Shown here one piece after another: positions 9,594-45,661 of a stretch of 64,000 nucleotides of DNA (position 1 is its first letter; the number at the start of each line of letters is the position of its first letter). The notes below the pieces were generated by a model. It made no database searches, was not told the origin of the DNA, and worked only from the letters and a program-made list of their open reading frames with translations. The translations under genes were made by a program, and so were the position numbers. The stretch is from Patescibacteria group bacterium. GTDB lineage: Bacteria; Patescibacteriota; Patescibacteriia; JAHJFT01. The DNA is taken from NCBI GenBank assembly GCA_028710985.1, contig JAQTTB010000001.1:19280-83279 (forward strand). Reading direction: 5' to 3'.

Positions 9594-10712
9594 CTACCAA
9601 AATATAATTAGTCGTGCAATTAAAAAATAAAGATTAAACAACGGATTAGCGATTTTAAGCGCCCAATTATTAATTTCCTGATACTCAATCTTCCCTGTGA
9701 AATGACGAAGCACTTCTTTATCCCCGATACTTCTCGCGCGCGCGATTCTCGCGTGCTTGACGAAGAGATACGGCCAGTGCCACGGCGCGATCATCCAAAG
9801 ATATGCCTTAAGCTTCTCGCGCCACCAGCCGGACTTGATGGAAAAAATAAACTGCCCGAGCTCCATCGCGAGAAAGGCCGGCAGAAACACGAGCTGGGTC
9901 AGAAATTTATAATCGCAAAAATATAAAATAAAACGATTTCGCTCCATCCAGTAATATTTTGAAATACTCCGGCTGAATTCATATTCGTGATACACAACCG
10001 ACCGCGGCGCGAGCACGTTCACGAACCCGCCAAGCCGGAGCCGCCAGCCCAGATCCAGGTCTTCGTGATACGCAAAAAGTTTTTCATCAAAAAGCCCGGC
10101 ATCGCGCAAGGCGCCGATCTTGTATAAAACCCCGGCTCCGGAGCCGTAAGCAATTTCCGGAAGCCCGATAAAATCGCGTTCGCTCCGCGCCGCGCGCGAA
10201 CCGCCGCAAAATCCGAATCCCAGATAATGAATCATGTTGCCCGACGAATTAATGAGTCCGCGCTCGGGCCAGAGCGCGAGCAGAGACTGCACCGAACCGA
10301 TTTTCTGATTTGATTCCGCCGCATCGACGGCATGGCGCAAAAAATCCGGCTCAACCCGCGTATCGTAATTTATTAAATAAACATAATCAAAACCCTGCAC
10401 CTGCCTGCCGGTAGGCAGGGCCATTGCATACTCAATCGCGCGGTTGTTTCCGCCGGCAAAGCCGAGATTCGTGTTCATGGGCATAAAGTGAATCTTCGGC
10501 AGCCCCTGGGGCGGCGACTGCATTATCTCCAGAATGCGCTCGCGCGACCCGTCGGTTGACGCATTGTCAACAATAACAAGCTCAACCGCCTCCCGCGGAT
10601 AATCCAAGAGCGCGAGCGATTCAATCCAGGCATCTAAAAAACGCCGCGCCTTCCAGAGCACGGCGATAATTGCCACTCGTTTTACATCCTGATTATTCAT
10701 GCTTTTTTGCAT
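9594..10712 (-). CDS. glycosyltransferase family 2 with C-terminal membrane extension
   Basis: VAIIAVLWKARRFLDAWIESLALLDYPREAVELVIVDNASTDGS is a GT2 signature with a DxD region. The start is chosen at MQKSMNN (10712), giving a 20-nt overlap with the upstream DUF2304-like gene. The ORF track's 10838 start would give a 146-nt overlap. Confidence 0.7.
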   Translation of the reverse strand: MQKSMNNQDVKRVAIIAVLWKARRFLDAWIESLALLDYPREAVELVIVDNASTDGSRERILEIMQSPPQGLPKIHFMPMNTNLGFAGGNNRAIEYAMALPTGRQVQGFDYVYLINYDTRVEPDFLRHAVDAAESNQKIGSVQSLLALWPERGLINSSGNMIHYLGFGFCGGSRAARSERDFIGLPEIAYGSGAGVLYKIGALRDAGLFDEKLFAYHEDLDLGWRLRLGGFVNVLAPRSVVYHEYEFSRSISKYYWMERNRFILYFCDYKFLTQLVFLPAFLAMELGQFIFSIKSGWWREKLKAYLWMIAPWHWPYLFVKHARIARARSIGDKEVLRHFTGKIEYQEINNWALKIANPLFNLYFLIARLIIFW

Positions 10713-11037
10713 CTTCACTCTTCTCTCCCACCGCGATTTCGCGGGTAATTTTTGTGATATTTTTTTCGATTGACTGAATTTTAATGAATATTCTGAACGC
10801 GAGATAAAATAACAGCACGATTGAAAGATATGTCGCAAGATCCGCGCCGCGCTCGACTCCGAACCAGGCCGCCGCCACGTCGGTTTTCTTTGGGATTACC
10901 GCCGCCGCGCTGACCGCAATCCAAAACAAAAGCCAAACCGCGAGCCATCCGGCGGTAATGTCTTTTGATCGGTACTTGCGGAACGCTCTCCAGGCCGCAA
11001 TCGCCGCAAATAATATAATAACCGCTTGAATTATCAC
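10693..11037 (-). CDS. small membrane protein, DUF2304-like (commonly paired with GT2 in CPR-type glycosylation modules)
   Basis: 114 aa with three hydrophobic helices and a charged C-terminal tail. Located between two GT2 genes. Confidence 0.55.
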   Translation of the reverse strand: MIIQAVIILFAAIAAWRAFRKYRSKDITAGWLAVWLLFWIAVSAAAVIPKKTDVAAAWFGVERGADLATYLSIVLLFYLAFRIFIKIQSIEKNITKITREIAVGEKSEDAKKHE

Positions 11038-13096: not shown

Positions 13097-13552
13097 CTAT
13101 TGTTTTATTGTTCTCTTAAAAATGAATATTTTCTGAAAAAAGAAATTAATAAAATAGAGAATGGCATACACCACAAATTTTGCCGCCACGTCCCAGATTC
13201 CGAGGTAATGCACCGTGACAAACAGCAGGCCTTCGCCGATCAAAAAAACCACAAGCGCGTTAATCCAATAAACCGCATACTGCCTGACCACGCGCTTATC
13301 CGTATCGCCGAAAGTATAAGTCTTGTTAAACCAATAACCCACGATCGCGCCGAGCGTCATGCTCACAAAATTCGCCAAAAGATAATGTATGCCGAAAATT
13401 TTTGTGAGCAATAGATACGTCCCAAAATCAACGCCGGTCGCCCCGGTCCCCACGATCGTGAACCGCCACAGCTGTTTGATGGTTTGAAAAAGATTTGATT
13501 TTTGAGATATATTTTTGAGATTTGAGATTTGAGATTTGAGATTATCTTCCAT
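13097..13552 (-). CDS. GtrA family membrane protein (putative polyprenyl-phosphate-sugar flippase component)
   Basis: FTIVGTGATGVDFGTYLLLTKIFGIHYLLANFVSMTLGAIVGYWFNKTYTF is a GtrA-like four-helix core. The N-terminal 20 aa are encoded by a 7-bp x4 repeat. The true start may be an internal TTG. Confidence 0.65.
   Translation of the reverse strand: MEDNLKSQISNLKNISQKSNLFQTIKQLWRFTIVGTGATGVDFGTYLLLTKIFGIHYLLANFVSMTLGAIVGYWFNKTYTFGDTDKRVVRQYAVYWINALVVFLIGEGLLFVTVHYLGIWDVAAKFVVYAILYFINFFFQKIFIFKRTIKQ
13515..13542. repeat. perfect tandem repeat TTGAGAT x4 (7-bp unit) at the 5' end of the GtrA CDS, inside the GtrA/WbaP divergent promoter region
   Basis: ttgagat ttgagat ttgagat ttgagat, preceded by a degenerate tttgaga copy at 13501. 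Read directly from the sequence. Confidence 0.9.
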
Positions 13553-13613
13553 ACTCTTGAAATTTTATCTAATATTAGTTAATATATGCCCACAAGCACA
13601 TATATTATCTCCT

Positions 13614-14993
13614 ATGACCGACACCATTGTCAAAGTAAAGAAAGCCCTGCTCGTGCTCGGCGACCTCGCGGCCGCCTATTCTTCGCTTTATCTTACCCTG
13701 CTTTTACGCTACCGCGACGGCCTGAATCTTGAAGCCTGGCAGAGCCATCTCGTCCCGTTCACCGCAATTTACCTTGCCTGGATTGTGGTATTTTTTATAA
13801 GCGACCTTTATAACCTGAACACCGCGCGAAACACCGTGGATTTCCGCCGACGCTTCTTCCAGGCTCTGGCAATCAACGCCCTGATCGCGGTCGCCTTCTT
13901 CTACCTCAATCCCGCCGTCGCTATTGCGCCAAAAACCAACCTTATTATCAACATCGCAGTTTTTGCGATTCTCGCCTACTTTTGGCGCGCGATTTTCAAC
14001 CTCGCGGCTTCACATTCAATTTTCGCGAACCGCGTGCTCTTTATTGGTTCACAGAAAAAATTTCAAGACATCATGCCCGACCTCGCACGAGGCGCCTATC
14101 ACGACTGGAAGGTCGTTGCCGTTGTCGACCCGCAGGAGATTAAAGAATACCGCCGCGACAACGTCAGTTTTTATAAAAACACCACCCCGCTTTCCGAAAT
14201 CATTAACCAGGAAAAAATCAGCACCATCGTGCTCGGCCTCTCCCCGGAAGAGCACCCGCGTCTCGGAAGAGAACTCTACGACTGTATCTTTGCCCATTCA
14301 ATCGCAGTCGTGAATTTGCCGAAATTTTATGAAATCGTCACCCAGCGCCTGCCGGCCGATTTGCTTTCAGAATACTGGTTTTTGGAAAATATCAAAGAAA
14401 TGGACAAAAAATTCCACGACTCGGCAAAGGCCATCGCCGATATCGCCCTCTCAATCGCCTTTGGCGCATTTTTCCTCGCCACCCTACCGATTATCGCGGC
14501 CGCGACACTGATCGACAGCGGCTGGCCAATTTTTTACACCCAGAACCGCGTCGGCCGCCGAGGCAAAATTTTCAAAATCATCAAATACCGCACCATGTAC
14601 CGCGATGCCGAGCTCCAGGGCGCGCTCTGGGCTAAGCGCAACGATGCACGCATTACCCGCGTCGGCCGCTTGCTCCGCAAAACCCGGCTGGACGAACTGC
14701 CGCAGATTATCAATGTCCTCAAGACCGACATGAGCTTCATTGGCCCGCGGCCGGAACGCCCGGAATTTGTAGCTGATTTGGAACGCATGATGCCGTTCTA
14801 CGCTCTCCGCCACTTAACCCGGCCCGGACTCACCGGTTGGGCGCAAATCAATTATGAATACGCCGCGAGCTACGAGGAAAATTTGAAAAAACTACAATAC
14901 GATTTATACTATATCAAGAACCGGTCACTCCTCTTGGACTTTAAAATACTTTTAAAGACCGCCGGGATTGTAATAAGCAGGAAGGGGCAATAA
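13614..14993 (+). CDS. polyprenyl-phosphate hexose-1-phosphate transferase (WbaP/sugar transferase family, initiating phosphoglycosyl transferase)
   Basis: Five N-terminal TM helices and a central domain. The C-terminal bacterial sugar transferase domain carries KFRTMYRDAE...DELPQIINVLKTDMSFIGPRPERPEF. The start is moved to the ATG at 13614 (MTDTIVKVKK) to avoid overlap with the divergent GtrA gene. Confidence 0.8.
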   Translation: MTDTIVKVKKALLVLGDLAAAYSSLYLTLLLRYRDGLNLEAWQSHLVPFTAIYLAWIVVFFISDLYNLNTARNTVDFRRRFFQALAINALIAVAFFYLNPAVAIAPKTNLIINIAVFAILAYFWRAIFNLAASHSIFANRVLFIGSQKKFQDIMPDLARGAYHDWKVVAVVDPQEIKEYRRDNVSFYKNTTPLSEIINQEKISTIVLGLSPEEHPRLGRELYDCIFAHSIAVVNLPKFYEIVTQRLPADLLSEYWFLENIKEMDKKFHDSAKAIADIALSIAFGAFFLATLPIIAAATLIDSGWPIFYTQNRVGRRGKIFKIIKYRTMYRDAELQGALWAKRNDARITRVGRLLRKTRLDELPQIINVLKTDMSFIGPRPERPEFVADLERMMPFYALRHLTRPGLTGWAQINYEYAASYEENLKKLQYDLYYIKNRSLLLDFKILLKTAGIVISRKGQ

Positions 14994-16054: not shown

Positions 16055-17308
16055 ATGGAAATCAAATTAATAAAAATCGCTGAAAAATTTTTCAAAACCG
16101 ACATTAATTATTTAATTAAGGGCGGCTTTTGGCTTACTTCCGGGCAAATCCTTACTTCGCTGTCATCTCTAATTTTAGCAATCGCTTTTGCCAATTTGCT
16201 GGAAAGAGAATCTTATGGCACCTATAGATATATTCTTTCCGCAATCGGCATCATTTCGCTCTTTACTCTTCCGGGAATAAATACCTCTTTGATAAGATCG
16301 ATAGCGAATAATTTTTCCGGATCCTACCTGAAGGCAATTAAGACAAAGTTTAAATTTTCACTGATTGCCACTATAGCTTGCTTAATAGTCGGAATATATT
16401 ATTTTTATTGCCAAAATAATGAAATTGCCTTTTGTTTCTTTATTATTGCATCCATTATCCCTTTCAATAAATCATCCGAACTCTATTTGTCTGTACTGAA
16501 CGGCCAGAAAAGATTTAAACTCTATACTATTCTATATGCGAGTTCAAATATTATTGCAACGTTGTCAATAATCTTAACTTTATTTTTCACGGATAGTTTA
16601 GCGCTAATTTTAACGTCGTATTTCTTATCTTATACGATCCTGCAATTAATATTTTCTTTGTACGTAAAAAAATACCTAAACAACAATGAGGCTGATAATA
16701 CCGTTGAATATGGCATTCATTTGAGCATAATGGATGTAATCAAAACGATCGCCGGACATCTCGACAGGATACTCATATTCAACGCAATGGGACCGTTAGA
16801 GGTGGCTATTTACTCTTTTGCCGTTGTCCCGCATAGCCAGGCAAAAAGTTTCCTCGAAAATATTAAAGTCCTCGCTTTCCCCAAACTTAGCGCGTCCAAC
16901 GAGGAGGATATAAGAAAATTTTTACCAAAAAAAATTCTAAAAATGGAGCTCATAATCGCAATCTTGGTAATCATCTACATCTTCGCCGCTCCGACCCTAT
17001 TCCAAATATTTCTCCCGAAATACATGGATTCGGTCCTCTATTCCCAAGTGTACTTTATCTCGTTGATATTTTTCCCAAGAACAATTTTATCTACCGCAAT
17101 GACCGCAAAAATAAAAAAGAAAGAACTTTATTCCATAAGAATCCTCAGTCCAATACTAAGAATTATACTGATGGTCGTCGGATTAAAATTCTTTCAACTT
17201 TGGGGCGTACTCGTCGCGGGTATGGCGGCAAATGCGCTCATGATGTTAATCTACGGCTATTACTTTAAAAAAGCATTCAAGCAAATCACTTATCAATCAT
17301 CTCTCTAG
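16055..17308 (+). CDS. polysaccharide biosynthesis protein, Wzx-like oligosaccharide flippase (MOP/MATE-like superfamily)
   Basis: 417 aa with about 12-14 predicted TM helices. Typical size and topology for Wzx. It is the only plus-strand gene in the island. Confidence 0.6.
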   Translation: MEIKLIKIAEKFFKTDINYLIKGGFWLTSGQILTSLSSLILAIAFANLLERESYGTYRYILSAIGIISLFTLPGINTSLIRSIANNFSGSYLKAIKTKFKFSLIATIACLIVGIYYFYCQNNEIAFCFFIIASIIPFNKSSELYLSVLNGQKRFKLYTILYASSNIIATLSIILTLFFTDSLALILTSYFLSYTILQLIFSLYVKKYLNNNEADNTVEYGIHLSIMDVIKTIAGHLDRILIFNAMGPLEVAIYSFAVVPHSQAKSFLENIKVLAFPKLSASNEEDIRKFLPKKILKMELIIAILVIIYIFAAPTLFQIFLPKYMDSVLYSQVYFISLIFFPRTILSTAMTAKIKKKELYSIRILSPILRIILMVVGLKFFQLWGVLVAGMAANALMMLIYGYYFKKAFKQITYQSSL

Positions 17309-22408: not shown

Positions 22409-23521
22409 TTATCCTAAAATCTTCATTAAATCATTATAAAACCGATCGGGGTTATACTGATTCTTTATCAATTCAAAGCCGGCATTTCCCATTTTTATTA
22501 AGTTGTGCTGATCCGAAATAGTCAGGCGAATCTTATCTATTAAATCGACCAAATTTTTACTTTCAAAGATGTAACCATTCACGCCATTCTCAATATATTC
22601 CTTCGTTCCATTTTCGCTCGAACTAATAACCGCCAGTTTGCAACTCATTGCTTCAACTATCGAAAAAGCCGCGGCTTCACCATAGCTCGGTAAAATGAAT
22701 ACATCATTTACTTTATATTCTTCATAAACATCCTTCCAATTAATATCAAATTTCACCTTCACAATTTCCGATAAATTATTAACTTTAATGTACTCTAATA
22801 ATTCATTTGTATATTCATTCTCATCCCTTTCGCCGACTAATGTAAGATTAATATTAAAATTATCTTTTAATTTTTCAACGGCCTTAACTAATAAAATCTG
22901 ATTCTTGCGCTCTTGGAATTTACCTACGCAGATAATATTAACCCATCCGCCAATAAAATACTCCTTGTTGAAGTCAAGCGCTTCATGAACAAATGGAATA
23001 TAAAAAAGATTCTTATTCTTACTTGCATAAGCGTCGTTACCCCTCAATGGAGTAATTACCGACGCCTTCCACAAAAAACCAACCAGCCAAATCGAGAAAC
23101 TCTTGATTTTTTTTCTAAATTTTTCAATTTGAATTAAAAAAATAATTTTTTTAACACCCAGGAACCGACTTAGAAGCGCGCCAAGGATTGAATAAAGACT
23201 ATCAATATTTTTTATCAGCACAACGTTCGGCCGATATTCCTTTATCAAATGATATAGTGAAAATATGGGTGGATAGCTATATCGTATCTCGAACCGATTC
23301 TTAATTGTGCGTCCACCCCGCTTATTGAATATTCTATTAAATAGCTTAAAAATATTCGAATATCCAACAACTCGCGGTTCTAGAATATCATAGCATTCTG
23401 ATTTTCCGCGATACATAACAAACATGGCCACTTCGTGTCCAAATGACTGAAGGGCCTCAATCATGTAGAAAAAATTTGTATGATATCGCGGGGTAAGAAA
23501 TAAAAATTTCATTGATTTCAA
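22409..23521 (-). CDS. glycosyltransferase family 4
   Basis: C-terminal GEAAAFSIVEAMSCKLAVISS GT4 motif. Confidence 0.7.
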   Translation of the reverse strand: MKSMKFLFLTPRYHTNFFYMIEALQSFGHEVAMFVMYRGKSECYDILEPRVVGYSNIFKLFNRIFNKRGGRTIKNRFEIRYSYPPIFSLYHLIKEYRPNVVLIKNIDSLYSILGALLSRFLGVKKIIFLIQIEKFRKKIKSFSIWLVGFLWKASVITPLRGNDAYASKNKNLFYIPFVHEALDFNKEYFIGGWVNIICVGKFQERKNQILLVKAVEKLKDNFNINLTLVGERDENEYTNELLEYIKVNNLSEIVKVKFDINWKDVYEEYKVNDVFILPSYGEAAAFSIVEAMSCKLAVISSSENGTKEYIENGVNGYIFESKNLVDLIDKIRLTISDQHNLIKMGNAGFELIKNQYNPDRFYNDLMKILG

Positions 23522-25224
23522 ATTTTTAAAATTTTATAATCCTTATTACTGAAAACTTCCTCCAGTCCGTCTGCTGAATTCGAACTATAGTATAAATCCA
23601 TATATTTACCGCGCGGCAAAAGAATATATGAACAATCAAGCCTAACGGCAAAATTTACAATCTCTTTGAAGTCAGCCGCTTTTTCAACGATCTGATTATA
23701 TGCCTGTCTCTCCTCATACCATCTTTTAGCATTTTCGAAATTTGAAGTAACCCAAATAGAACCTTCTTTTTCAGTCAGATTAGTATTCTGCCTACTTAAT
23801 ACTTTGAATTTAAATTCATTTTGAAAGTCATCAAAAACAAAAATCCGGTTCTCACTAACGGAAAGCGCGCTTTTTGCCCAAATTGCCGCCTCATAAAGAT
23901 TGTTAAAGTTATTTGTATTCGATTCATCCACCACGGGGGCTAAATTATATTTTATTCTTATGCCTTCGGGCACCAATGCCCTTACTACCGGCCTAATAAC
24001 GGGCGCAAAAAAATAAATTGGCGTAACCACAACGATCAAAGATAATGCTACGGACAGCCATTTTTTATTCATCCTAGAATAAAGCAAATAAACAACTAGA
24101 GCGAACTGCATGATTAGAATGAAGCCCAACACCCTCATTAGCCGAATGTGCTCCACGAAAAATGGCAGCTCTCCATTTTTCATTAAAAAATAATTAGTAA
24201 CATCAACACCGATAACGAATAAAATGGTTATAATCATCAGTATGGTGCTGATTTTATGAACTGCCCGTTTCTCCGAATCTAATGAGGACCCGTAGATACG
24301 CATGATAAAAAACGATAAAAAAAACATTAAGATCATTGTAAAACTATCCCACATCGAACGTTTAATTCTGGCCAAGTCGACTGTCGCGAGAAAACCGTTC
24401 GCTTCAAACCTATATTGAACAATTTCAGAATGCAAAGCAACGTCCTCGGCGCTCAAATACTCCTCGGCCGGAATCATGCCGGTACTCGAATTAGTAAAAT
24501 GGTTTATCAAAAATGGCAAAGCTACTATAAAATAAATGACAGCAAAAATAATTATCGGCTTGAAATATGCCCTATGTTGCTTCGCATAAAAAATCAAAGC
24601 GCCCAAGATAAATAAACCGATAACTACGCTTCCGACGGGCGGATATAAGTAAAGCAAAATGCCGGCAGATATTGCCAATAAAATATTATATTTATTATTT
24701 TTTAAACCATAAATTATCCAATAGTAGCTAAGCAAAAAATAAAAAGGAAAGGCGAATGTATTGCCGCGCAAATTCCCAAGATCGAGCAAGCCAATTCTTG
24801 TAAAGAATACATTACGCGGTACTACGCACAAAAGTCCCACCAATGCCGCTAGGGACCAGCTTTTAAATATTTTTTTAGCAATTAATCCGCTCGCAAGATA
24901 GGTTATGGCAATTATAAGAATAGTAAATAGATGATAGCTCACTAAATCATACTTCAAGCCTGGATTGAAATAATAAAAAACCGGGAACGCTGCATATAGC
25001 TCCTCCTGATTATAAGCCGACGGCACGTCTGTCCATACTCCATCATTTTTTTGTATCATCAATAATTGATAACACCAAAGATCGCTGCTCAAATCGCCAA
25101 GATTACTACCATAATTAGTAAAAATATAATAAAAAATTATGACTACAAGTATGATAGTAAAAAAAAGTTTAGAATTGAAAAATTTTAACATTTTATTTAC
25201 GTTGTTTAAATAGAAGATCAGCAA
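23518..25224 (-). CDS. polytopic membrane protein, GT-C-like (GtrC/YfhO-like), directly downstream of a GtrB-like GT2
   Basis: About 420 aa of TM helices followed by a roughly 150-aa soluble C-terminal domain. Translationally coupled to the GT2 at 25193..26050. Confidence 0.5.
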   Translation of the reverse strand: MLIFYLNNVNKMLKFFNSKLFFTIILVVIIFYYIFTNYGSNLGDLSSDLWCYQLLMIQKNDGVWTDVPSAYNQEELYAAFPVFYYFNPGLKYDLVSYHLFTILIIAITYLASGLIAKKIFKSWSLAALVGLLCVVPRNVFFTRIGLLDLGNLRGNTFAFPFYFLLSYYWIIYGLKNNKYNILLAISAGILLYLYPPVGSVVIGLFILGALIFYAKQHRAYFKPIIIFAVIYFIVALPFLINHFTNSSTGMIPAEEYLSAEDVALHSEIVQYRFEANGFLATVDLARIKRSMWDSFTMILMFFLSFFIMRIYGSSLDSEKRAVHKISTILMIITILFVIGVDVTNYFLMKNGELPFFVEHIRLMRVLGFILIMQFALVVYLLYSRMNKKWLSVALSLIVVVTPIYFFAPVIRPVVRALVPEGIRIKYNLAPVVDESNTNNFNNLYEAAIWAKSALSVSENRIFVFDDFQNEFKFKVLSRQNTNLTEKEGSIWVTSNFENAKRWYEERQAYNQIVEKAADFKEIVNFAVRLDCSYILLPRGKYMDLYYSSNSADGLEEVFSNKDYKILKI

Positions 25225-26050
25225 TTAGAGAAATGAAAAATATGAGCACGGCGCTTAACATGAGGAATATGCTGAAATTACCAACAAAATTATCGCCTAC
25301 AAGATCATATATACCCTTGGCGAAACCGACTGTAAAGAATGCAATTCCAAACGGTATTAAAAATTTTAATGGTTGAAAATAGAAGGCAATTTTAAAAATT
25401 AAATTTATGTAAGTAAAAAAATTCCACGGCCTAATACCAGACTCGCCCACCCTTTTGTGATAGTCGATTGGCAGGAATTTGACTAAGTAATCATTCTTTA
25501 AAAACGCCATAGTAATGGTTGACGTAAATGAATATCGGCTGGGATACAATCCCCAAAACTCAAAACAGATATCTTTTTTGAAAAGCCTCATCCCCGAATT
25601 CAAGTCAGGTATTTTTCTATTGACAAGCCATCCCGCAAACCAATTTACAAATTTTTTCGGAACCCGTCTAATAAATTCGGTATGGTTAACCTTCGTCACT
25701 CTTGCACCGACAATCATGTCATAAGAATCCATGAACGGAAAAAAATCCGATAGCTTCTCTACGGGATAAGTGCCATCGGCATCGATAATAAAAATCCACT
25801 TGCCGGCTGCGGTTTTAATCCCCCTTTTCAAGGAGGCTCCGTAACCTAAATTATATGGATTGCGAATAATCTTTATATCTGATCGTGATTCTAATGTTTT
25901 CAGAGTGCCATCCTCGCTCTTATCATCAATGGCAATTATTTCAAAAGTATGTGATGTACACTTTTCGGCAACTCGTGCCAGTCCATCCAAAACATTCGCA
26001 ACCGTCGCTTCTTCGTTATAACATGGGATAACAATTGAAATTTCACTCAT
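25193..26050 (-). CDS. glycosyltransferase family 2, GtrB/ArnC-like polyprenyl-phosphate sugar synthase (two C-terminal TM helices)
   Basis: SIVIPCYNEEATVANVL...IAIDDKSEDGT...IDADGTY plus C-terminal hydrophobic helices. Confidence 0.8.
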   Translation of the reverse strand: MSEISIVIPCYNEEATVANVLDGLARVAEKCTSHTFEIIAIDDKSEDGTLKTLESRSDIKIIRNPYNLGYGASLKRGIKTAAGKWIFIIDADGTYPVEKLSDFFPFMDSYDMIVGARVTKVNHTEFIRRVPKKFVNWFAGWLVNRKIPDLNSGMRLFKKDICFEFWGLYPSRYSFTSTITMAFLKNDYLVKFLPIDYHKRVGESGIRPWNFFTYINLIFKIAFYFQPLKFLIPFGIAFFTVGFAKGIYDLVGDNFVGNFSIFLMLSAVLIFFISLIADLLFKQRK

Positions 26051-26054
26051 ATAA

Positions 26055-26981
26055 TTATTTATTTATTGCAATTATTCGAATATTGGAGGTGGCATATAGA
26101 GCCCCGAGAACAAAATCAATTAACGAAAAAAATAGTGTTAAAAATAAATTATTTATATTAAACCAACCGGCAATTTTTTTATGTTTGTCATCGAAATAAT
26201 GATGCAATGACTGAATCCAGAAAGTCGGGCTCAGCAAAAATTGAATTCCAATAACAGCGAAATTGCACTCATTCAACAAACCCACGAGGATATTTTTATT
26301 AAAAATATGCCAATGTCGTGGTATATGATAGCCTCCCCAATATCTCTTTCTAAAAATTCTCGCATCTAGAGAATCGTAATTTGGGGTTTCGATAATAAGC
26401 AAGCCGTTCCGTTTAAGCATCCTCCTGGCCTTTAAAATAATTTCGCGTGGATTATGAAGGTGCTCAATCGTTTGATTCAAAATGATTGCGTCAAAATAAT
26501 CATAATAACCCCCCATTTCTTCGAATCTTCCTGCAATGAATTCGATACCATGCCGATTTAATATATCACCAGTTGCAGAATTAATATCATTGCCATACAA
26601 TTTCCATCCGCTACCCCTGTGTTTCTTAATAATTCTGAGCAATTCTCCGTTGCCGCACCCACCGTCGAGAATTCTAGCATCATCCGAAAGATTAGCAAGC
26701 AAAGGACGAACCTTCAATCTTTGCACAAAATTCCGCGCAATCTTTGTAATAAAATTTAACCCCTCTTCAAATTTATAAGGAAAATAATTTGCTGGATAAA
26801 TCTTTTCAATTTCTCCGACGGTCGGATTGGGATTTAGGTATATCACACCGCACTTTAAACACTTTACGTAACAATATTCCTGATCGGATGTGTGATATTC
26901 AAAATCTTTTCCATGCGCCCAAACTTTGTACAGATCCGATCCGCATACACCACGACAAGCTTTTTGGGTCCTTATTTCCAT
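26055..26981 (-). CDS. class I SAM-dependent methyltransferase with N-terminal Cys4 zinc-ribbon
   Basis: CRGVCGS...CLKCGVIY zinc ribbon. ILDGGCGNGELLRII SAM motif. Confidence 0.7.
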   Translation of the reverse strand: MEIRTQKACRGVCGSDLYKVWAHGKDFEYHTSDQEYCYVKCLKCGVIYLNPNPTVGEIEKIYPANYFPYKFEEGLNFITKIARNFVQRLKVRPLLANLSDDARILDGGCGNGELLRIIKKHRGSGWKLYGNDINSATGDILNRHGIEFIAGRFEEMGGYYDYFDAIILNQTIEHLHNPREIILKARRMLKRNGLLIIETPNYDSLDARIFRKRYWGGYHIPRHWHIFNKNILVGLLNECNFAVIGIQFLLSPTFWIQSLHHYFDDKHKKIAGWFNINNLFLTLFFSLIDFVLGALYATSNIRIIAINK

Positions 26982-27080
26982 ATTTTTTTATAATCCACCG
27001 GAAACTGCTTCTCATAAATTGGCAATAAATAATCAAATTTTCCCCACTGATATCCGAATCTCTCTTCAGAACCCATACAT

Positions 27081-28913
27081 TTATAATTCAAGCTTATTTT
27101 TACGGTAAAATTTTACAAAACTTATCAAACCCCACAACTCTCTACTATAATCTTTCTTATTCCCCATATGATCCGCAACCATTTTTTCAATCGCTTTACC
27201 ATTTAAAAATGCTATATCCGCAATATTCTTTTTATCTAAAATATCCATCATGAAATCCTTTAATTCATTCTTCAGCCAATCCGCGATCGGAAAGCTGAAT
27301 CCCTGCTTCTTTGTATAAATTAACTTTTTCGGTAAATACCTCTCTAGAAGCTTTTTTAAAATATACTTAGTGGTGATACCGCGAATTTTTAATCCCGGCG
27401 CCAAGGAATTGCTAAACTTTATTACTTCGTTGTTCAAGAAAGGAACACGTACCTCTAAAGAATTAGCCATGCTCATTCGATCGACCTTGACTAAATACTC
27501 CCCTTCCAGCACGGTTTTCTGATCAACATACAATAGCTGATTCAGCACATCTTCCCCCTCCACGACTTTAAAATACTCTGCAAAATCGTCGCAAACATTG
27601 TTAAAAAAATCTTCAACTAGGATATCCGCATTATGCATTATTCTATAATAAAAATGAGATTTTGTAAATGGATACTTGGCCGCATAAACAAACCTTTTTA
27701 ACTTATAATCAAAGCTCATTTTTCTGTAAGAAGACGGCAAATAATGAACCATTTTTTCCACCAATGTTTTTATGGGCAGGTGGCGATAAATTTGACTAAT
27801 TCTAGGCAAATAATAGATAGGGTAACCCCCAAATAACTCATCCCCGCCGTCGCCGGATAAGCAGACTGTCGCTCGCTCTTTTGCAAAATGGCACAAGAAA
27901 TATGTGGGAATCGCGCTGCTGTCACCAAAAGGCTCCTGAAAATAATCAAAAATATCCGGAATGGCATTTATGACCTCCCTCTTCTCTAGATAAATCGAAT
28001 TATGATTAGTGCCAATAATCTTTGCGATTTTACTGGCGTTCTTTGATTCGTCATAAGAATTCTCACCGAAATTAAATCCAACCGTAAATGTATTCAGGTT
28101 TCCTACATGCTCCTTGGCGATGGCGGTGATTAAACTAGAATCAACGCCGGAGGATAAGAATACCCCCAATGGCACATCGCTGACCAAGGATTGTTCGATT
28201 GATTCATCGAGCACGCACCGTAGGGCATCGATTGAATTATTAAGATCTTGATAATTATTTGTAAATGTCGGTTTCCAATATTCCTGAATATTAATTTGCT
28301 CTTTCTGCAAATCAAAAATCGCAAAACTAGCCGGTGGCAATTTAAAAACGTTTTCAATTATGGACTCATTGCCATAAATGTAATTTTGATAAAAAAATCT
28401 TCTGACTGCCCTTAAATTAATTTTTTTGTTGATCTGGAGCGATGCCAGCTCAGAGGCGAATTGAAATATCCCGTCATGAAAACTATAGTAAAGTGGTTTT
28501 ATTCCCATTCGATCTCTGGCCAAAATTAATTGATTTTTAACTTCATCGTAAATTGCCAGGGCGAACATGCCATCGAATAATTTGAAGGCTTCTGGTCCAT
28601 ATTTAATATAGGCCCTTAATACAACCTCCGTATCGGAATCGGAGAAATAGTCACCGGGCAAATCTTTTTTTAATTTTTTAAAATTATATACTTCACCATT
28701 GTAGACAATCGCATAGGCGCCAATTCTCATGGGTTGGCTCGCCCTTTGAGAAAGATCAATGATAGAAAGACGCCGGTGTCCTAATTTGACCCTCTGATCT
28801 TCGGATATAAAAAAACCTGCCGCATCCGGACCGCGGTGGAGCATTGAATCTCTTCTCTTCAAAAAAATTTCCTTATCAAATTTCGATGAATATTCTCCGA
28901 TAATTCCGCACAT
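27081..28913 (-). CDS. asnB: asparagine synthase (glutamine-hydrolysing) family amidotransferase (WbpS/PseA/AglX-like candidate sugar amidotransferase)
   Basis: N-terminal MCGIIG class II glutaminase nucleophile. SGGVDSS PP-loop. 610 aa. Confidence 0.85.
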   Translation of the reverse strand: MCGIIGEYSSKFDKEIFLKRRDSMLHRGPDAAGFFISEDQRVKLGHRRLSIIDLSQRASQPMRIGAYAIVYNGEVYNFKKLKKDLPGDYFSDSDTEVVLRAYIKYGPEAFKLFDGMFALAIYDEVKNQLILARDRMGIKPLYYSFHDGIFQFASELASLQINKKINLRAVRRFFYQNYIYGNESIIENVFKLPPASFAIFDLQKEQINIQEYWKPTFTNNYQDLNNSIDALRCVLDESIEQSLVSDVPLGVFLSSGVDSSLITAIAKEHVGNLNTFTVGFNFGENSYDESKNASKIAKIIGTNHNSIYLEKREVINAIPDIFDYFQEPFGDSSAIPTYFLCHFAKERATVCLSGDGGDELFGGYPIYYLPRISQIYRHLPIKTLVEKMVHYLPSSYRKMSFDYKLKRFVYAAKYPFTKSHFYYRIMHNADILVEDFFNNVCDDFAEYFKVVEGEDVLNQLLYVDQKTVLEGEYLVKVDRMSMANSLEVRVPFLNNEVIKFSNSLAPGLKIRGITTKYILKKLLERYLPKKLIYTKKQGFSFPIADWLKNELKDFMMDILDKKNIADIAFLNGKAIEKMVADHMGNKKDYSRELWGLISFVKFYRKNKLEL

Positions 28914-28919
28914 AGATAC

Positions 28920-29327
28920 TTAATTCTCTTTAAAGCAAAAAACGAATCTTTTATTAATTAAAAATGTAAAAAAGGACATTAATAATCCGACCAGGGCAAC
29001 GGATAAAAGGTAATAAAAACCTAAAATAGTTGTTAGCAAATAGACCAAAGTGAAGGTAATTAATCCTATTGCGCCATATATCGCGAGATAACCAAGGTAC
29101 CTTGCAACATAACCTGATTTTCCATGACCAGAAAATGTAAATAATGAATTCATTATAAAACTAAAAGTCCAGGTAATAAAAGTTGCGATTACAAAAGATA
29201 ACATGTACCAAAAATGCAGTGATTCAGTAAAAATGAAAGTTAATAATAAATTCAACAAAAAAGAACTGACTCCAATGATGAAAAATATCGGATATCTCCT
29301 AAAGATATTTATTATATTCAAAGCCAT
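28920..29327 (-). CDS. GtrA family membrane protein
   Basis: Four hydrophobic helices. The start is chosen at MALNIINIF (29327) to avoid a 53-nt overlap with the upstream gene. The ORF track start is 29399. Confidence 0.55.
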   Translation of the reverse strand: MALNIINIFRRYPIFFIIGVSSFLLNLLLTFIFTESLHFWYMLSFVIATFITWTFSFIMNSLFTFSGHGKSGYVARYLGYLAIYGAIGLITFTLVYLLTTILGFYYLLSVALVGLLMSFFTFLINKRFVFCFKEN

Positions 29328-29346
29328 CTTGAAAAAATTAATAAAG

Positions 29347-30783
29347 TCACGCTTCAACAATTTTCTTTTTACGACCTCCGAATTTCCATGAATTGCCATT
29401 TCTCATCTGAATATAAATTGAATTCAAATCAATTTCTGAATTACTTCTCAACCATCGTTCGATAAGATCCCTTGATAAATATGTAGTTGTTGGCGTTACC
29501 AATTGGTCAAAAACAATGTGGTGAAAAAAAATAAAGTTCTCCTCGGAAATCCAAACGGTATATTGATATAATGGTAATTTTTTTACAAAAGAAATACTTT
29601 TAAGTATATTGATTATTTTAGAGTAAAGAAAAAATAAAATAGCCAATGGGCCAGCGATAAAATATTTATTTAACCACCATGGTGTATGACAAACAATGCG
29701 ACGAAGTCGATCGATGACGTTTATTATTATCCAATTGCCTTCTTCCGCATAAACCCAGCAATGAAAACGACCGCCGGGTATAGTATTTTTAATTACAAAA
29801 TTAAAACCCAACTCCGGCTCCTTTAAATGATGGAGAACGCCAATACAATAAACAACATCGAACCCACCTTCGCTGAATTGTAAAATATCATCCTGAATAA
29901 TCCTATATTTTGTATTTTTGATATCTTCTAAATTTTTTCTCGCCGAATCGACGGAAGCACCTAAGTCAACCCCAACCATTTCACGCGGCTGCCAATTTGC
30001 TAAATGCACCATCAGGCTGCCATTGCCGCAGCCGAGCTCTAATATTTTATTTCCAGAAAAATCATTCTTGGTCAGTGGATGCATCCAATCCTCGAACTGT
30101 TTAAATGTATATATTGAACCAGCGACCAGATGATTCCACGATTTGGCAAATGCATCTGCCGTACCCTGATCCGGACTAGCAATAGCTTCATTCAGCTCCT
30201 TGGAGTGTGATTTTACACAAACGAATTCAAACGAAATCTCATCAAATCCCCCAACCCAAAAGCACCATATTCTGCTGCAAAAAACCTGGTTAAAATTAGC
30301 TAAACCGCTAATAAATTTATCTACTATTTTCAGTAGTTGCGTGGAAATTTCGCCATAACCCAAATATTGCAATAAATGCGGAAAAGCCATCCACCGCAGT
30401 TCCATTCTTTTCAGCCTAAATTCGACGCCGATATATCCAGATGAAGTATACTTTTCATTAAAGTAAAGGGGGAAAGCAACATCAAAACCGTGTGCATGTT
30501 GAGCGTGCGTAAAGCCGCGAGAAAAATGCGGCACTTTCAATTTTAAAATGCCGCCGTCTCTTAAAATTCTGTGCATCTCTTTCATCACCTCGAACGGTTT
30601 ATCGAGATGCTCCAAAACATGATAAGCCTCAATCAAATCAAAGCTATTCGATTCAAATGGATAAGGCAAACTGTTCAGGTCATGGATAACATCCGGTGAA
30701 ACTAACGGATTGATGTCAACATTGATATAATCGCTCTTTTTTGACGCACCGCATCCTAAATTTAATTTGTTCGTACTTTTCAT
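29347..30783 (-). CDS. tandem dual-domain SAM-dependent methyltransferase
   Basis: Two SAM motifs: LNLGCGASKK and ILELGCGNGSLMVHL. 478 aa. Confidence 0.65.
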   Translation of the reverse strand: MKSTNKLNLGCGASKKSDYINVDINPLVSPDVIHDLNSLPYPFESNSFDLIEAYHVLEHLDKPFEVMKEMHRILRDGGILKLKVPHFSRGFTHAQHAHGFDVAFPLYFNEKYTSSGYIGVEFRLKRMELRWMAFPHLLQYLGYGEISTQLLKIVDKFISGLANFNQVFCSRIWCFWVGGFDEISFEFVCVKSHSKELNEAIASPDQGTADAFAKSWNHLVAGSIYTFKQFEDWMHPLTKNDFSGNKILELGCGNGSLMVHLANWQPREMVGVDLGASVDSARKNLEDIKNTKYRIIQDDILQFSEGGFDVVYCIGVLHHLKEPELGFNFVIKNTIPGGRFHCWVYAEEGNWIIINVIDRLRRIVCHTPWWLNKYFIAGPLAILFFLYSKIINILKSISFVKKLPLYQYTVWISEENFIFFHHIVFDQLVTPTTTYLSRDLIERWLRSNSEIDLNSIYIQMRNGNSWKFGGRKKKIVEA

Positions 30784-30800
30784 AACTGGATTTAAAATGT

Positions 30801-31754
30801 CTAAAAATTAATTTTAGATTTTAAAACGTACGGTTTCTCCCCTCGCGATTCATAATAAGTGCGCATGATCAATTCCGCTAAAACACCCATGGCGATAAGC
30901 TGTATGCCGACAATGATAAATAAAGCAGTCAATATCGGCAATGGAGTCTCCACGAAACTTCTTAATCCAAAAATTTTAAGCACAATCGCAGATAGGCCGG
31001 CCATAATCCCGACAAAAAGCGCGATAAACCCCATCCCTCCAAAAAAATGCATCGGCTTATTCAAATACTTTTCAAAAAATTTTATAACTACCAAATCCAG
31101 TAAAACTCTAAAAATTCTAGATAAACCATAATTGCTCCGACCGGCTTTTCTTGGACGATAGTTTACCTCCACTTCTGTCAGATTAGCGCCTTGGCGTACG
31201 GCATAAGCCGGTATAAACCGATGCATTTCTCCATAGAGGGAAAACCCGTGTAATATTTTTTTTCTATATGCCTTCAATGTGCATCCATAGTCATGCAACT
31301 TAACATTAGTAATTCTTGAAATCAACCAGTTCGCCATGAGGGAGGGCAGTCTACGACTTAATTTATTCTTTTGCCAACGCCCGCGACGCCACCCGGAAAC
31401 AACGTCATACCCGTTATTAATACGCTCCAAGAGCCTTGGAATATCGGCCGGGTCATTTTCTAAATCACTATCCATGGTCACGATTATATCACTGCTCGCA
31501 TATTCAATCCCGGCTTGAAGCGCGGCGGTTTGTCCGCGATTTACCGCAAAACTTAAAACCTTAATTTTATTATTATCGCCCGCTAGTGATTTTAACACGG
31601 CCAAAGAATTGTCGCTCGACCCATCGTCAACCAGAATTATTTCATAATCATAACTATTCCTCTCCATTACGGACACGATCTCTCGGACCAATTCCAATAA
31701 ATTTTTTTCCTCATTATAGACTGGTATAACAATCGATAAATGCATATTTCCCAT
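30801..31754 (-). CDS. glycosyltransferase family 2, GtrB/ArnC-like polyprenyl-phosphate sugar synthase
   Basis: LSIVIPVYNEEKNLLELV...LVDDGSSDNS...MDSDLEND plus two C-terminal TM helices. Confidence 0.8.
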   Translation of the reverse strand: MGNMHLSIVIPVYNEEKNLLELVREIVSVMERNSYDYEIILVDDGSSDNSLAVLKSLAGDNNKIKVLSFAVNRGQTAALQAGIEYASSDIIVTMDSDLENDPADIPRLLERINNGYDVVSGWRRGRWQKNKLSRRLPSLMANWLISRITNVKLHDYGCTLKAYRKKILHGFSLYGEMHRFIPAYAVRQGANLTEVEVNYRPRKAGRSNYGLSRIFRVLLDLVVIKFFEKYLNKPMHFFGGMGFIALFVGIMAGLSAIVLKIFGLRSFVETPLPILTALFIIVGIQLIAMGVLAELIMRTYYESRGEKPYVLKSKINF

Positions 31755-33418
31755 TAAAATTTAATTAAAACAAAATATTCATTTTGCGATATGGGAAGAT
31801 CCCCTTGATCCCCTTCTTTCACCACTCCGGCTAACGCTGAGTTCGAACGCAATAGCGCATAATTTGCCCCATATTTACGACCAAAATCTATCAACTTAAC
31901 GATATCGTCACCGTGTAGGGCATTGTTTTGTTCTTCAAATACTCTGCGCCATTCTACCAATTGATTCTTGCCCGACATTAAATATGCGGATCCCTCTTCA
32001 AAGGAAGTAACTATATTAACCCTGCAGAAATAACGCAAATTAAAATCATTACTAATCACGGTATCCCCGTCGCCGACACCGCCGTTTTTAAGTTGCTGGC
32101 AAACTATATTATATATCTTTTCCTGGTCTTCAAACACCTTATTTTGAAATACCCTGGGTATATATTCCTCCTGATAATTCTCATAACCTAATAAAAATTG
32201 AAACCATTCGAAGCCAAAGGAGGAGCTCAAAAAGCCCAAAATGAGCAGGGCGGATAAGAAAATTACTCGAACTTTTTTTTGTAAAAAATATCTATTGCGT
32301 CTAAATAATTCTTCCAGTGAAACAGCCACTAATAAAAATATACCAAAGTAAACAAATTTAAAAAATCGACTAGTTTGCTGAAAAATAAACGGACCATCCA
32401 AATGGATCATCGCTATTTGTAGTATTGGAAAAAATACACTAAAAAATATTGAGAGCAGTATAAATAAAATTGACCACTTTGCGATAAGATAATCCAAGGA
32501 TTCTTTTATGATTAACCTCTTTTTCAAGAGGTACAAAACATATGCAACGAATGGCGCAAAGAAAACAAGAATAATTATCATATGCCGTATCCACATAAGG
32601 CTCTCCGGCGGATAATCCCATGGCGTCCTAAAAATTATCGCTTCCAAGAAGTCTAAGCTTGAGTATTCAACATTAGATAAAAATTTGGAATTTATTGCAT
32701 CTAAACGAAAAATTATTTCATACAACAGCAAGGATGAACCAAGAATAAATGCAGCTGACGCTGATGCGGTCTGTTTCAAAACACCAAAAAAATTATTGCG
32801 CCAAAATAAAAGAAATAAAGATATTACGAGAGCTAGAAAAGTAAAAAATAATATGCTTACCGGATGAATATAAGAGACTATACCGAGCAATAAGAACAAC
32901 GGCCAAATTTTCTTATTGTCGTAAATAAATTTAATAATTAATGCACCGATTATCCATAAGAATGGCATCGCCGTCGAACGTCCCAAAACTTCATAATTCG
33001 TGAGAACTCCGAATATTTCGTTCCCGACCGAAAAGCGCGGGGCAAGGGCTACTATAGCTACAACGATCGCGATTGAACGCCGTATGCCCAATATTCTAAG
33101 CGCAATATACGCCGAATAACCAGTAAAAAAAACCATAGAAAATAATAGTATATTGCGGCTGGTAAATGGATCAAAGAAATAACTCAACGCATTAATAATA
33201 TATGGATAAACGTAGTATCGATACGTCATCGTGGACAATAATTCATTTCCTGGATAAGAACTATCCATTAAAGCCCGGTTAGACGCCATAATGGCAATCT
33301 CATCGCCATTGAGTCTAAACGGCAGGGAAAAATTATAAACAACCGACAGAGCGGCAATAAACAAAAAAATCAATATTACACATAAATTGACGATTCCAAC
33401 ATTTTTACGCTCTGACAT
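31754..33418 (-). CDS. polytopic membrane protein, GT-C-like (GtrC/YfhO-like), directly downstream of a GtrB-like GT2
   Basis: About 400 aa of TM helices plus a roughly 150-aa soluble C-terminal domain. Start/stop overlap with the GT2 at 30801..31754. Confidence 0.5.
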   Translation of the reverse strand: MSERKNVGIVNLCVILIFLFIAALSVVYNFSLPFRLNGDEIAIMASNRALMDSSYPGNELLSTMTYRYYVYPYIINALSYFFDPFTSRNILLFSMVFFTGYSAYIALRILGIRRSIAIVVAIVALAPRFSVGNEIFGVLTNYEVLGRSTAMPFLWIIGALIIKFIYDNKKIWPLFLLLGIVSYIHPVSILFFTFLALVISLFLLFWRNNFFGVLKQTASASAAFILGSSLLLYEIIFRLDAINSKFLSNVEYSSLDFLEAIIFRTPWDYPPESLMWIRHMIIILVFFAPFVAYVLYLLKKRLIIKESLDYLIAKWSILFILLSIFFSVFFPILQIAMIHLDGPFIFQQTSRFFKFVYFGIFLLVAVSLEELFRRNRYFLQKKVRVIFLSALLILGFLSSSFGFEWFQFLLGYENYQEEYIPRVFQNKVFEDQEKIYNIVCQQLKNGGVGDGDTVISNDFNLRYFCRVNIVTSFEEGSAYLMSGKNQLVEWRRVFEEQNNALHGDDIVKLIDFGRKYGANYALLRSNSALAGVVKEGDQGDLPISQNEYFVLIKF

Positions 33419-33430: not shown

Positions 33431-34159
33431 TTATTTTCTACATATCGCCATCAACGAAACGCCGAATGGAAAATTAAAACGCTTCAATACAAACGCTTCC
33501 AGGGAAAACACCCAAAATAATATACGAGATAAGGGGCCGCCGCTGCCGACAAATTCGATTTTCTTAACAGAAAAAAAAGCTTTTTCGAAAAAACGGAAAA
33601 ATAATATTGGCAAAAATAAAATGGTATTAAAATACGAAGAACGTACAACGTGCAAACCCAAACTCCGTAATTTTACAAAAATTTGATTGTAGGTATAACG
33701 GCGAAAATGATGTCCCGCCTCATCGGCCCAGCCCCACAAAAAATTAAAAGCAGGAACAAAAATAATAATTATTCCTTCTTTTTTTACTACACGTTTCAAT
33801 TCACTAATAGCTTTATTATCATCAGACACGTGTTCTAATACATCGAGGCAAATCACAACATCAAAAAAATTATCTGGAAATTGAATATTCGTAATATCTC
33901 CCAAATCGACATTCTCTAAAAAATTTTGTTTACAAAAATTAACGGCCAACGGGCTATTATCAACGCCATAACAAACACCGAATTTTTTGAGCTCCTTCAT
34001 CAGCATACCCGTGCCACAACCGACATCGAGCATCTTCAATGCACCACTATGGTCAGAAAAAAAATTACTGATTATATCAGCTACAATTCTTCGCCTCACC
34101 CTATACCACCAATTATCTTTTTCAGCTGTATAAATTAATTTATAGACGTCAGATCGCAT
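33431..34159 (-). CDS. class I SAM-dependent methyltransferase
   Basis: MLDVGCGTGMLMKEL SAM motif. Confidence 0.7.
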   Translation of the reverse strand: MRSDVYKLIYTAEKDNWWYRVRRRIVADIISNFFSDHSGALKMLDVGCGTGMLMKELKKFGVCYGVDNSPLAVNFCKQNFLENVDLGDITNIQFPDNFFDVVICLDVLEHVSDDNKAISELKRVVKKEGIIIIFVPAFNFLWGWADEAGHHFRRYTYNQIFVKLRSLGLHVVRSSYFNTILFLPILFFRFFEKAFFSVKKIEFVGSGGPLSRILFWVFSLEAFVLKRFNFPFGVSLMAICRK

Positions 34160-45660: not shown

Positions 45661-45661
45661 A

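Follow-up and report, generated by a model that had tools for sequence, protein, structure and literature searches.

Two predicted three-component extracytoplasmic glycosylation modules with orphan GT-C-like membrane proteins in a surface-glycan locus of a Patescibacteria genome

The stretch of DNA analysed here, referred to as the window (64,000 nucleotides of contig JAQTTB010000001.1, assembly GCA_028710985.1, positions 19,280 to 83,279), belongs to a contig of 744,538 bp in a metagenome-assembled genome (MAG) of a Patescibacteria (candidate phyla radiation, CPR) bacterium, which has a surface-glycan-rich locus that spans at least 45 kb. The window contains two gene pairs, each made up of a GT2-family glycosyltransferase (GT2a or GT2b) and a large polytopic membrane protein (MP1 or MP2), with a GtrA-family gene located between them, and we consider it likely that these genes encode two parallel three-component extracytoplasmic glycosylation modules in which MP1 and MP2 are the transferases and a surface heteropolysaccharide is the likely acceptor. 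Systems of this type are defined by a GtrB-type synthase, a GtrA protein and a polytopic GT-C enzyme acting outside the membrane (PMC11127046). A three-component system had been proposed in an earlier reading made from the letters of the window (the sequence-only reading), and it is now supported by the families of the GT2 and GtrA proteins, by the GT-C-like fold and outside topology predicted for MP1 and MP2, and by conserved linkage of the genes in related genomes. The GT2, GtrA and MP open reading frames (ORFs) of both pairs were confirmed and are all on the minus strand (Table 1).

Predicted fold and topology of MP1 and MP2

The AlphaFold2 model of MP1 is confident (pLDDT 86.5, pTM 0.87), and that of MP2 has a pLDDT of 77.7 and a pTM of 0.80. 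High-scoring matches of the two models are to GT-C folds only, as the sequence-only reading had anticipated, with AftA, PglB and ArnT at the top of the Foldseek ranking (probability 1.00) and transporters at the level of noise. The longest structural alignments are with STT3B, AglB and PglB (381-442 residues), and the C-terminal domain of the MP model matches the AglB C-terminal domain. From the model helices and the positive-inside rule, both proteins have 11 transmembrane (TM) helices, an inside N-terminus and an outside C-terminus, with a C-terminal soluble domain of ~150 amino acids (aa), which agrees with the 11-13 TM helices and outside C-terminal domain expected of them. The short cytoplasmic loops are rich in K and R and nearly devoid of D and E, the long outside loops are acidic, and the positive-inside analysis places the C-terminal domain and a conserved aspartate outside.

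Enzymes of the GT-C_A class are defined by a module of TM1-7 with two juxtamembrane helices between TM1 and TM2, the first of which carries an essential aspartate at its tip in all members (PMC12041299). The AlphaFold2 models of MP1 and MP2 both display this architecture, and in them the first helix to follow TM1 has D37 of MP1 (in SSD-x-W) or D39 of MP2 (in G-D-E) at its N-terminal tip. This aspartate is invariant in the MP1 family, the MP2 family and their merged alignment, and is the sole invariant column among 72 distant relatives, whose mean column identity is 14%; D37 and D39 are the predicted candidates for the catalytic residue. In MP1, K277, R278, R350 and R353 are candidates for a basic residue that would bind the phosphate. 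The G-D-E of MP2 is at what we take to be the position of the PMT 'DE' motif. With the motif outside and the genes linked to those of GtrB-type GT2 and GtrA proteins, MP1 and MP2 would be expected to use a lipid-phosphate-linked sugar donor on the outer side of the membrane.

A rare family of membrane proteins

Families such as YfhO, GtrII/Gtr* and AftA have Pfam-A models, and neither MP1 nor MP2 matches those of PMT, PMT_2, YfhO, GtrII, STT3 or AftA (GT85) at E <= 0.01. The hidden Markov model (HMM) matches to YfhO, PMT, ArnT and GtrII families that had been looked for did not materialize for either protein; membership of the PMT/ArnT/PMT_2 group (GT39, GT83) and of the YfhO, GtrII/Gtr* and AftA families was rejected on profile scores, and neither protein has the MIR domains of PMT enzymes. 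Profiles of the MP1 and MP2 families, and of that of a third polytopic protein of the window (MP3, described below), found nothing above noise among PDB sequences (E >= 0.045). Judging from the models, MP1 and MP2 would work in the manner of the PMT, YfhO, GtrII, STT3 and AftA enzymes while standing outside those families.

When 5.8 billion proteins were searched, 19 full-length MP1 homologues were found, and only four of MP2 besides the window's own protein. All are annotated as 'hypothetical', and every one with a source name is from Patescibacteria. The MP1 and MP2 families are homologous to each other (hhalign probability 98%, E 6e-14, 406 columns). Among 1.84 billion cluster representatives, searched exhaustively by profile, only 131 matched at E <= 1e-3, and the superfamily is therefore rare; at least one distant member comes from a Phycisphaerae MAG. 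DUF6798 (PF20604, 61 residues), a domain for which we know of no function, is present in the C-terminal soluble region of 28 of the 72 distant relatives (best E 1.3e-15), and MP1 and MP2 themselves have no match to it at E <= 0.01. The literature searched contained no mention of DUF6798 and no papers on GT-C enzymes in Patescibacteria, and the CPR and GtrA appeared there in passing mentions only.

Fusions of a GT2 domain to an MP domain were sought among the N-terminally extended relatives and none was found; one relative is fused to GtrA (see below), and the other N-terminal regions have no assignment. We note that one of these, the distant MP2-like protein P0165 (752 aa), has a soluble N-terminal extension of ~215 aa that opens with a Walker-A-like GVPGGGKTT motif and has no Pfam match.

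The MP1 gene model merits comment. The longest ORF opens at a TTG codon at 25224, the start adopted in the sequence-only reading, but the start is most likely to be the ATG at 25191, because this codon begins one base past the GT2a stop (TAA-A-ATG) and agrees with the N-termini of 18 homologues. The corresponding GenBank model (PHW53_00200) is only 312 aa long, begins at residue 246 of the 557-aa ORF, and lacks both TM1-7 and the invariant aspartate; since all of the homologues are ~555 aa, the public annotation is evidently truncated at its N-terminus. MP2 and MP3 correspond to PHW53_00230 and PHW53_00120 respectively (100% identity each).

Donor synthases and GtrA protein

Judged by their family matches, GT2a and GT2b are polyprenyl-phosphate glycosyltransferases, and their description as GtrB-type has held, in that the alignments of both with solved GtrB, ArnC and DPMS proteins span most of the sequence or the whole of it. 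The best NCBIfam match of GT2a is to AglJ over its full length, followed by dolichyl-phosphate hexose transferase, and in the PDB it matches GtrB (8e-15), DPMS (4e-13) and ArnC (2e-11). Matches that cover the whole of GT2b are to the NCBIfam models of ArnC (203 bits, equivalog cutoff 529) and PgfS (159 bits) and to the solved structures of ArnC (E 7e-52) and Synechocystis GtrB (E 2e-35). The catalytic domains of the two proteins are 30% identical to each other. Both score far below every NCBIfam equivalog cutoff, and the sugars that they transfer are not derivable from these matches; the assignment of GT2b as an ArnC orthologue, that is, an undecaprenyl-phosphate 4-deoxy-4-formamido-L-arabinose (Ara4FN) transferase, was ruled out on its score, and GT2b is a related enzyme only.

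Both proteins have the form of the membrane-anchored GT-A-type synthase of a three-component system. Two C-terminal TM helices had been claimed for each, and these are clear in GT2b, which has two strong segments (234-265 and 266-299), but GT2a has one strong segment (253-283) preceded by a weaker hydrophobic one (~223-247, mean Kyte-Doolittle value ~1.4). The GtrA-family gene is indeed located between the two pairs, and the start given for it previously, at 29327, is possible as an alternative to that in Table 1. We propose that its product is the flippase for the polyprenyl-phosphate sugar, and it supplies the GtrA-family candidate for this component of the system.

Gene order in related genomes

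In the first pair the GT2a stop is 1 nucleotide ahead of the MP1 start, and the membrane protein follows its GT2 as had been described; in the second pair the order is reversed, with MP2 upstream of GT2b and a 1-nucleotide overlap of stop and start (TAATG). Although the genes of both pairs abut, which had been read as translational coupling, close abutment is typical of the whole operon and therefore is not specific evidence for coupling within the pairs.

Homology to MP1 and MP2 retrieved 11 related loci (numbered with the prefix L), of which eight are distinct, making nine with the window. A GtrA gene, a GtrB-type GT2 gene and MP genes are kept together in all nine of these Patescibacteria loci, and the predicted GT-C gene is genetically linked to a synthase gene in the nine and also in locus L012, which contains a gene fusion. 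In every locus examined a methyltransferase gene precedes MP1 and adjoins the GT2a/MP1 pair, and MP1 is always followed by genes for a GT4, a methyltransferase, a Fem-like protein, a deacetylase-like protein, a second methyltransferase, a second GT4, a CDP-alcohol transferase and Wzx. A GtrB-type GT2 is encoded upstream of MP1 in all of the loci except L010, where none was detected in the 5 kb covered, and GtrA is found in every syntenic locus with sufficient upstream sequence. MP2 is always followed directly by an orthologue of GT2b (56-57% identity) and then by AsnB; the AsnB protein is syntenic in L001, L002, L004 and L005 (59-64% identity) and is also present in L012.

The fusion protein, P0162, joins a GtrA domain (residues 86-214) to an MP2-family domain (380 bits), and its gene in L012 abuts a GT2b orthologue (57% identity), which is followed by AsnB and two methyltransferases. 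The fusion also hints at a physical complex of GT2, MP and GtrA proteins. A different kind of variation is seen in L006, and apparently in L008, L010 and L011, where GtrA, GT2, methyltransferase and MP1 stay in place and the AsnB cassette is replaced by heptose-type nucleotide-sugar genes, encoding an NTP transferase, a GHMP kinase, a HAD phosphatase, a SIS isomerase, a transaldolase and a GFO/DAO oxidoreductase; upstream of MP1 in L006 (1-8000) and L012 (1-8000) this pathway replaces or joins the AsnB cassette. The exchange suggests modular swapping of the donor sugar. Conserved synteny, the cassette swap around GtrA, GT2, methyltransferase and MP1, and the P0162 fusion together tie the MP family to a GtrA-/GtrB-dependent route.

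Three loci have an extra membrane protein of ~560 aa encoded between GtrA and the MP2 homologue (L001 2364-4055, L004 1213-2907 and L005 2184-3860). The window lacks an equivalent of this protein, which may be a third GT-C. The L001 protein (563 aa) has no Pfam match and, with an hhalign probability of only 30% against the MP1 family, was not counted as a member, and the L005 copy has a weak match to PMT_2. Two orphan proteins of L012 (544 and 542 aa) were also considered as MP1/MP2 relatives and set aside, having no BLAST or HMM match to them.

Proposed pathway and alternative explanations

In the pathway that we propose, GT2a and GT2b would each load polyprenyl (undecaprenyl) phosphate with a sugar taken from a nucleotide sugar at the cytoplasmic face of the membrane, as their family suggests, and the conserved AsnB and methyltransferase proteins may amidate or methylate that sugar. 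GtrA would then carry the polyprenyl-phosphate sugar to the outer leaflet. There MP1 and MP2, as paralogous 11-TM enzymes of GT-C_A-like architecture with a putative catalytic aspartate at the tip of juxtamembrane helix 1, would take the lipid-linked sugars as donors, GT2a presumably serving MP1 and GT2b serving MP2, and their outside C-terminal domains would bind the acceptor. A Wzx/Wzy-type surface heteropolysaccharide is the likeliest acceptor, given the genes for a phosphoglycosyl transferase, GT4s, Wzx and Wzy_C round about.

Several observations weigh against this scheme or parts of it. The assignment of MP1 and MP2 to the GT-C fold depends on predicted structures, of which that of MP2 (pLDDT 77.7) is only moderately confident and was built from 5 sequences, and D37 and D39 are equated with the GT-C aspartate by their position in the secondary structure. 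Neither protein matches any Pfam (E <= 0.01) or NCBIfam model, those of the characterised GT-C families included. The pairing of GT2a with MP1 and of GT2b with MP2 is taken from adjacency only, and in L006, L008 and L011 the sole GtrB-type GT2 near MP1 is closer to GT2b than to GT2a. There is also a single GtrA for the two GT2/MP pairs in the window.

The nature of the acceptor leaves room for a reading in which the same three-component chemistry serves proteins (S-layer proteins, pilins or membrane proteins) and MP1 and MP2 resemble PMT or PgfM-type O-glycosyltransferases. We regard this as unlikely, since the conserved block of GT4s, Wzx and CDP-alcohol transferase beside an initiating phosphoglycosyl transferase is the hallmark of a locus for polysaccharide synthesis, none of the neighbouring genes consistently encodes a candidate acceptor protein, and the MIR domains and PMT or PMT_2 matches of such enzymes were not found. 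A more specific version, in which MP1 and MP2 constitute a new GT-C family whose AglB-like C-terminal domain recognizes proteins and which adds single tailored sugars to S-layer, pilus or other surface proteins, seems to us doubtful; the amidation and methylation might in that case be carried out on the lipid carrier by membrane-anchored enzymes. If true, it would be a glycosylation route distinct from both the PglB/AglB and the PMT types, in a lineage whose attachment to its host depends on its surface. It is improbable that the two proteins are instead processive extracytoplasmic polymerases, producing homopolymers or long branches in the manner of the mycobacterial Emb and Aft arabinosyltransferases: similarity of fold cannot tell processive from single-addition enzymes, AftA itself is a priming enzyme that makes a single transfer (PMC12041299), and the locus already has Wzx and a Wzy_C protein for polymerization.

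The structural alignments raise the question of oligosaccharyltransferase- or ligase-like activity, with en bloc transfer of a lipid-diphosphate-linked glycan to protein or cell wall, since STT3B, AglB and PglB give the longest alignments and the C-terminal domain resembles that of AglB. Such an activity is nevertheless very improbable. A WWDYG-type motif is present in none of the 24 close family members (0/24), with a bare WWD in one of the 72 distant ones, there is no match to the STT3 HMM, and the ties to GtrB-type synthases and GtrA, through tight and conserved linkage and through fusion, indicate single-sugar donors linked through a monophosphate; membership among the STT3/AglB/PglB oligosaccharyltransferases (GT66) was rejected on the motif and the HMM. 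Finally, the fact that MP1 and MP2 match no HMM of the characterised families is what might be expected if they were not glycosyltransferases at all, being rather Wzy-type polymerases, transporters or structural proteins with GT2 neighbours by chance, but we find this scarcely credible, and Wzy, WaaL and transporter identities were rejected on the fold scores.

Should MP1 and MP2 prove to have the predicted activity, they would earn a new GT family in CAZy, as happened with GT136; the concept of extracytoplasmic glycosylation itself would be left unchanged. With the analysis, two 'hypothetical' membrane proteins and a rare family (131 representatives) acquire a testable function and a candidate catalytic residue, and DUF6798 is linked to GT-C enzymes. 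The Patescibacteria, with their very small genomes, live on the surface of host cells, and their own surface glycans are almost uncharted.

Table 1. Features of the window discussed in the text, with the matches that support their assignment
Feature	Coordinates	Strand	Matches and remarks
MP3, polytopic membrane protein, 698 aa	4975..7071	+	Orphan family; hhalign to MP1/MP2 superfamily
GT2c, membrane-associated GT2	9594..10838	-	PF00535, PF13641, PF13632; one TM segment
DUF2304 small membrane protein, GacJ/Rv3632-like	10693..11037	-	PF10066 E 6e-22; three TM; overlaps GT2d end
GT2d, PpgS/GacI-like polyprenyl-phosphate N-acetylhexosamine (HexNAc)-type synthase (putative), 223 aa	11034..11705	-	PF00535; NCBIfam PpgS 194 bits over full length (cutoff 370)
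Second GtrA-family protein, upstream module	13097..13552	-	PF04138 E 1.2e-21; GtrA at same relative place in L015
Phosphoglycosyl transferase, initiating (Bac_transf)	13536..14993	+	PF02397 E 7e-62; context for lipid-diphosphate-linked acceptor polymer
Wzx-type flippase	16055..17308	+	PF01943 E 8.5e-16; last gene of conserved block starting at MP1
MP1, orphan GT-C-fold membrane glycosyltransferase (predicted), 557 aa	23518..25191	-	11 TM, Asp37, outside C-terminal alpha/beta domain (~407-557)
GT2a, polyprenyl-phosphate glycosyltransferase (GtrB/DPMS/AglJ-like), 285 aa	25193..26050	-	PF00535 E 1.7e-28
S-adenosylmethionine (SAM)-dependent methyltransferase	26055..26981	-	PF13489 E 2.7e-20; hydrophobic C-terminal segments 231-250, 274-299
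AsnB-type glutamine amidotransferase, 610 aa	27081..28913	-	PF00733 E 3e-94 and GATase domains; between the two GT2/MP pairs
GtrA-family small membrane protein	28920..29399	-	PF04138 E 1.7e-14, 54.5 bits (cutoff 26.1); four TM segments
Methyltransferase, two methyltransferase-like regions, 478 aa	29347..30783	-	PF08241 E 1.8e-24 in two stretches; hydrophobic segment 375-400
GT2b, polyprenyl-phosphate glycosyltransferase (ArnC/GtrB/PgfS-like), 317 aa	30801..31754	-	PF00535 E 9e-38
MP2, MP1 paralogue, orphan GT-C-fold glycosyltransferase (predicted), 554 aa	31754..33418	-	G38-D39-(E) motif, outside C-terminal domain
SAM-dependent methyltransferase	33431..34159	-	PF08241 E 2.3e-23; directly upstream of MP2
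Wzy_C (O-antigen polymerase/ligase-like) and TPR protein, 747 aa	43417..45660	-	PF04932 E 3.8e-20 and TPR families

Upstream gene set and MP3

A third set, analogous to the two pairs, had been described in the upstream part of the window. All of its genes are present, and GT2d, the DUF2304 protein and the second GtrA protein form a plausible donor-making part, but GT2c is not of the GtrB type, and MP3, probably a remote relative of MP1 and MP2, is GT-C-like on indirect evidence only. GT2d has no TM segment and is encoded beside the DUF2304 protein, an arrangement of the GacI/GacJ and PpgS/Rv3632 type that is kept in three related loci (L013-L015). GacJ and Rv3632 stimulate GacI and PpgS (bioRxiv 10.1101/180810), and by analogy the DUF2304 protein is presumed to be the activating partner of GT2d. 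GT2d falls below the PpgS equivalog cutoff and therefore no sugar is assigned to it. The best NCBIfam match of GT2c is to PgaC at only 35 bits, and it is probably an ordinary chain-building glycosyltransferase.

MP3 has no Pfam, NCBIfam or PDB sequence match. Its family has at least 323 homologues, and those with source names are nearly all from Patescibacteria, with one labelled Eisenbacteria. The hhalign probability is 58% against the merged MP1/MP2 profile, with its own invariant D214 falling on the invariant aspartate and H351-P352 on a shared HP motif, and 94.9% (E 5e-8) against the diverse superfamily profile; on these alignments MP3 is a probable remote relative of the superfamily. GT2d, DUF2304 and the second GtrA would form a third donor-making module of the GacI/GacJ type, for which MP3 is a plausible but unproven candidate GT-C transferase. 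The block of MP3, GT4, GT4, (GT2), DUF2304, GT2, epimerase and (GtrA) is kept in three distant genomes (L013-L015); it is possibly a core cassette for envelope glycans across the phylum. In two of these three (L013 and L015) a true PMT_2 GT-C gene is also located near MP3. The other side of the MP3 blocks is often occupied by a divergent CDP-alcohol transferase, a PMT_2 GT-C and a HIT protein, and S8 peptidase genes also border the blocks in L013-L015.

Tailoring genes

The AsnB-type protein presumably amidates a sugar. The three methyltransferases listed in Table 1 all have hydrophobic C-terminal segments and might act at the membrane, possibly on a lipid-linked sugar. Roles for these proteins in sugar amidation and methylation are suggested by family membership alone. 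The 544-aa protein encoded at 20772-22406 has a methyltransferase domain and a C-terminal region that in other loci is encoded by a separate gene of 250 aa, and it therefore appears to result from a gene fusion in the window genome; the separate counterpart has a faint FemAB match, which hints at an aminoacyl-type decoration of the glycan.

Setting of the locus

The region from ~16 to 42 kb of the window is an island of low G+C content (0.35-0.42, as opposed to 0.48-0.52 in the flanks), densely packed with minus-strand genes for GT4s, methyltransferases, a radical-SAM enzyme and epimerases, and containing the Wzx flippase, which is syntenic in L002, L004 and L006 (45-47% identity). The genes of the island, together with the phosphoglycosyl transferase, Wzx and the Wzy_C/TPR protein, identify a large surface-glycan locus, in which the Wzy_C/TPR protein, separately from the modules, could be the polymerase of the acceptor polymer or a ligase for it. 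The island (16000-42000) coincides with the variable part of this locus, with a pattern typical of horizontally exchanged surface-polysaccharide clusters, and at its edge (41397-41789, plus strand) is a gene for a 23S rRNA-intervening-sequence protein (PF05635, E 2.8e-28). Beyond it (43417-51557) the Wzy_C/TPR protein, an S8 subtilase (652 aa) and a 1259-aa protein are encoded side by side; the last of these has no Pfam match and is conceivably a protein of the surface or S-layer that might itself be glycosylated.

Comparison with known systems

A direct precedent for the overall design is the serotype c carbohydrate (SCC) locus of Streptococcus mutans, which has two undecaprenyl-phosphate-glucose synthases, each with a dedicated GT-C (SccN/SccM and SccP/SccQ; PMC11754754). 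There, as here, two GtrB-type GT-A synthases and two GT-C enzymes are encoded as pairs within one surface-polysaccharide locus. The window differs in having a GtrA gene, whereas the S. mutans flippase is unidentified, in the AsnB and several methyltransferase genes conserved inside the module, in its Patescibacteria host, and in that MP1 and MP2 have no detectable sequence relation to characterised GT-C enzymes. The GtrA-GtrB-Gtr* O-antigen glucosylation systems of Shigella and Salmonella are the prototype with the same three components, but their Gtr* proteins belong to other sequence families, with no Pfam match here, and their genes are carried by prophages; the genes described here are chromosomal, and two pairs share one GtrA.

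More distant comparisons can be drawn with mycobacterial AftA, the priming arabinofuranosyltransferase of family GT85, and with the ArnC/ArnT pathway for lipid A aminoarabinose. MP1 and MP2 are only 8-9% identical in sequence to AftA and do not match its Pfam model, and AftA draws on decaprenyl-phosphate arabinose, a donor that comes from a route dependent on phosphoribosyl pyrophosphate and not from a GtrB-type GT2 (PMC11127046). The Arn pathway differs in that no ArnA, ArnB or ArnD genes accompany GT2b, whose score is well under the ArnC cutoff (203 bits against 529). The upstream set shares with GacI/GacJ/GacL of Streptococcus pyogenes and PpgS/Rv3632/Rv3779 of Mycobacterium tuberculosis the succession of a TM-less GT2 and a DUF2304 protein, and departs from them in the score of GT2d, which is under the PpgS cutoff, and in MP3, which is an orphan encoded on the opposite strand ~4 kb away. 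The type of system is thus already known; what appears to be new, judging from the predicted structures, is that its transferases form an undescribed and rare GT-C family at the margin of DUF6798.

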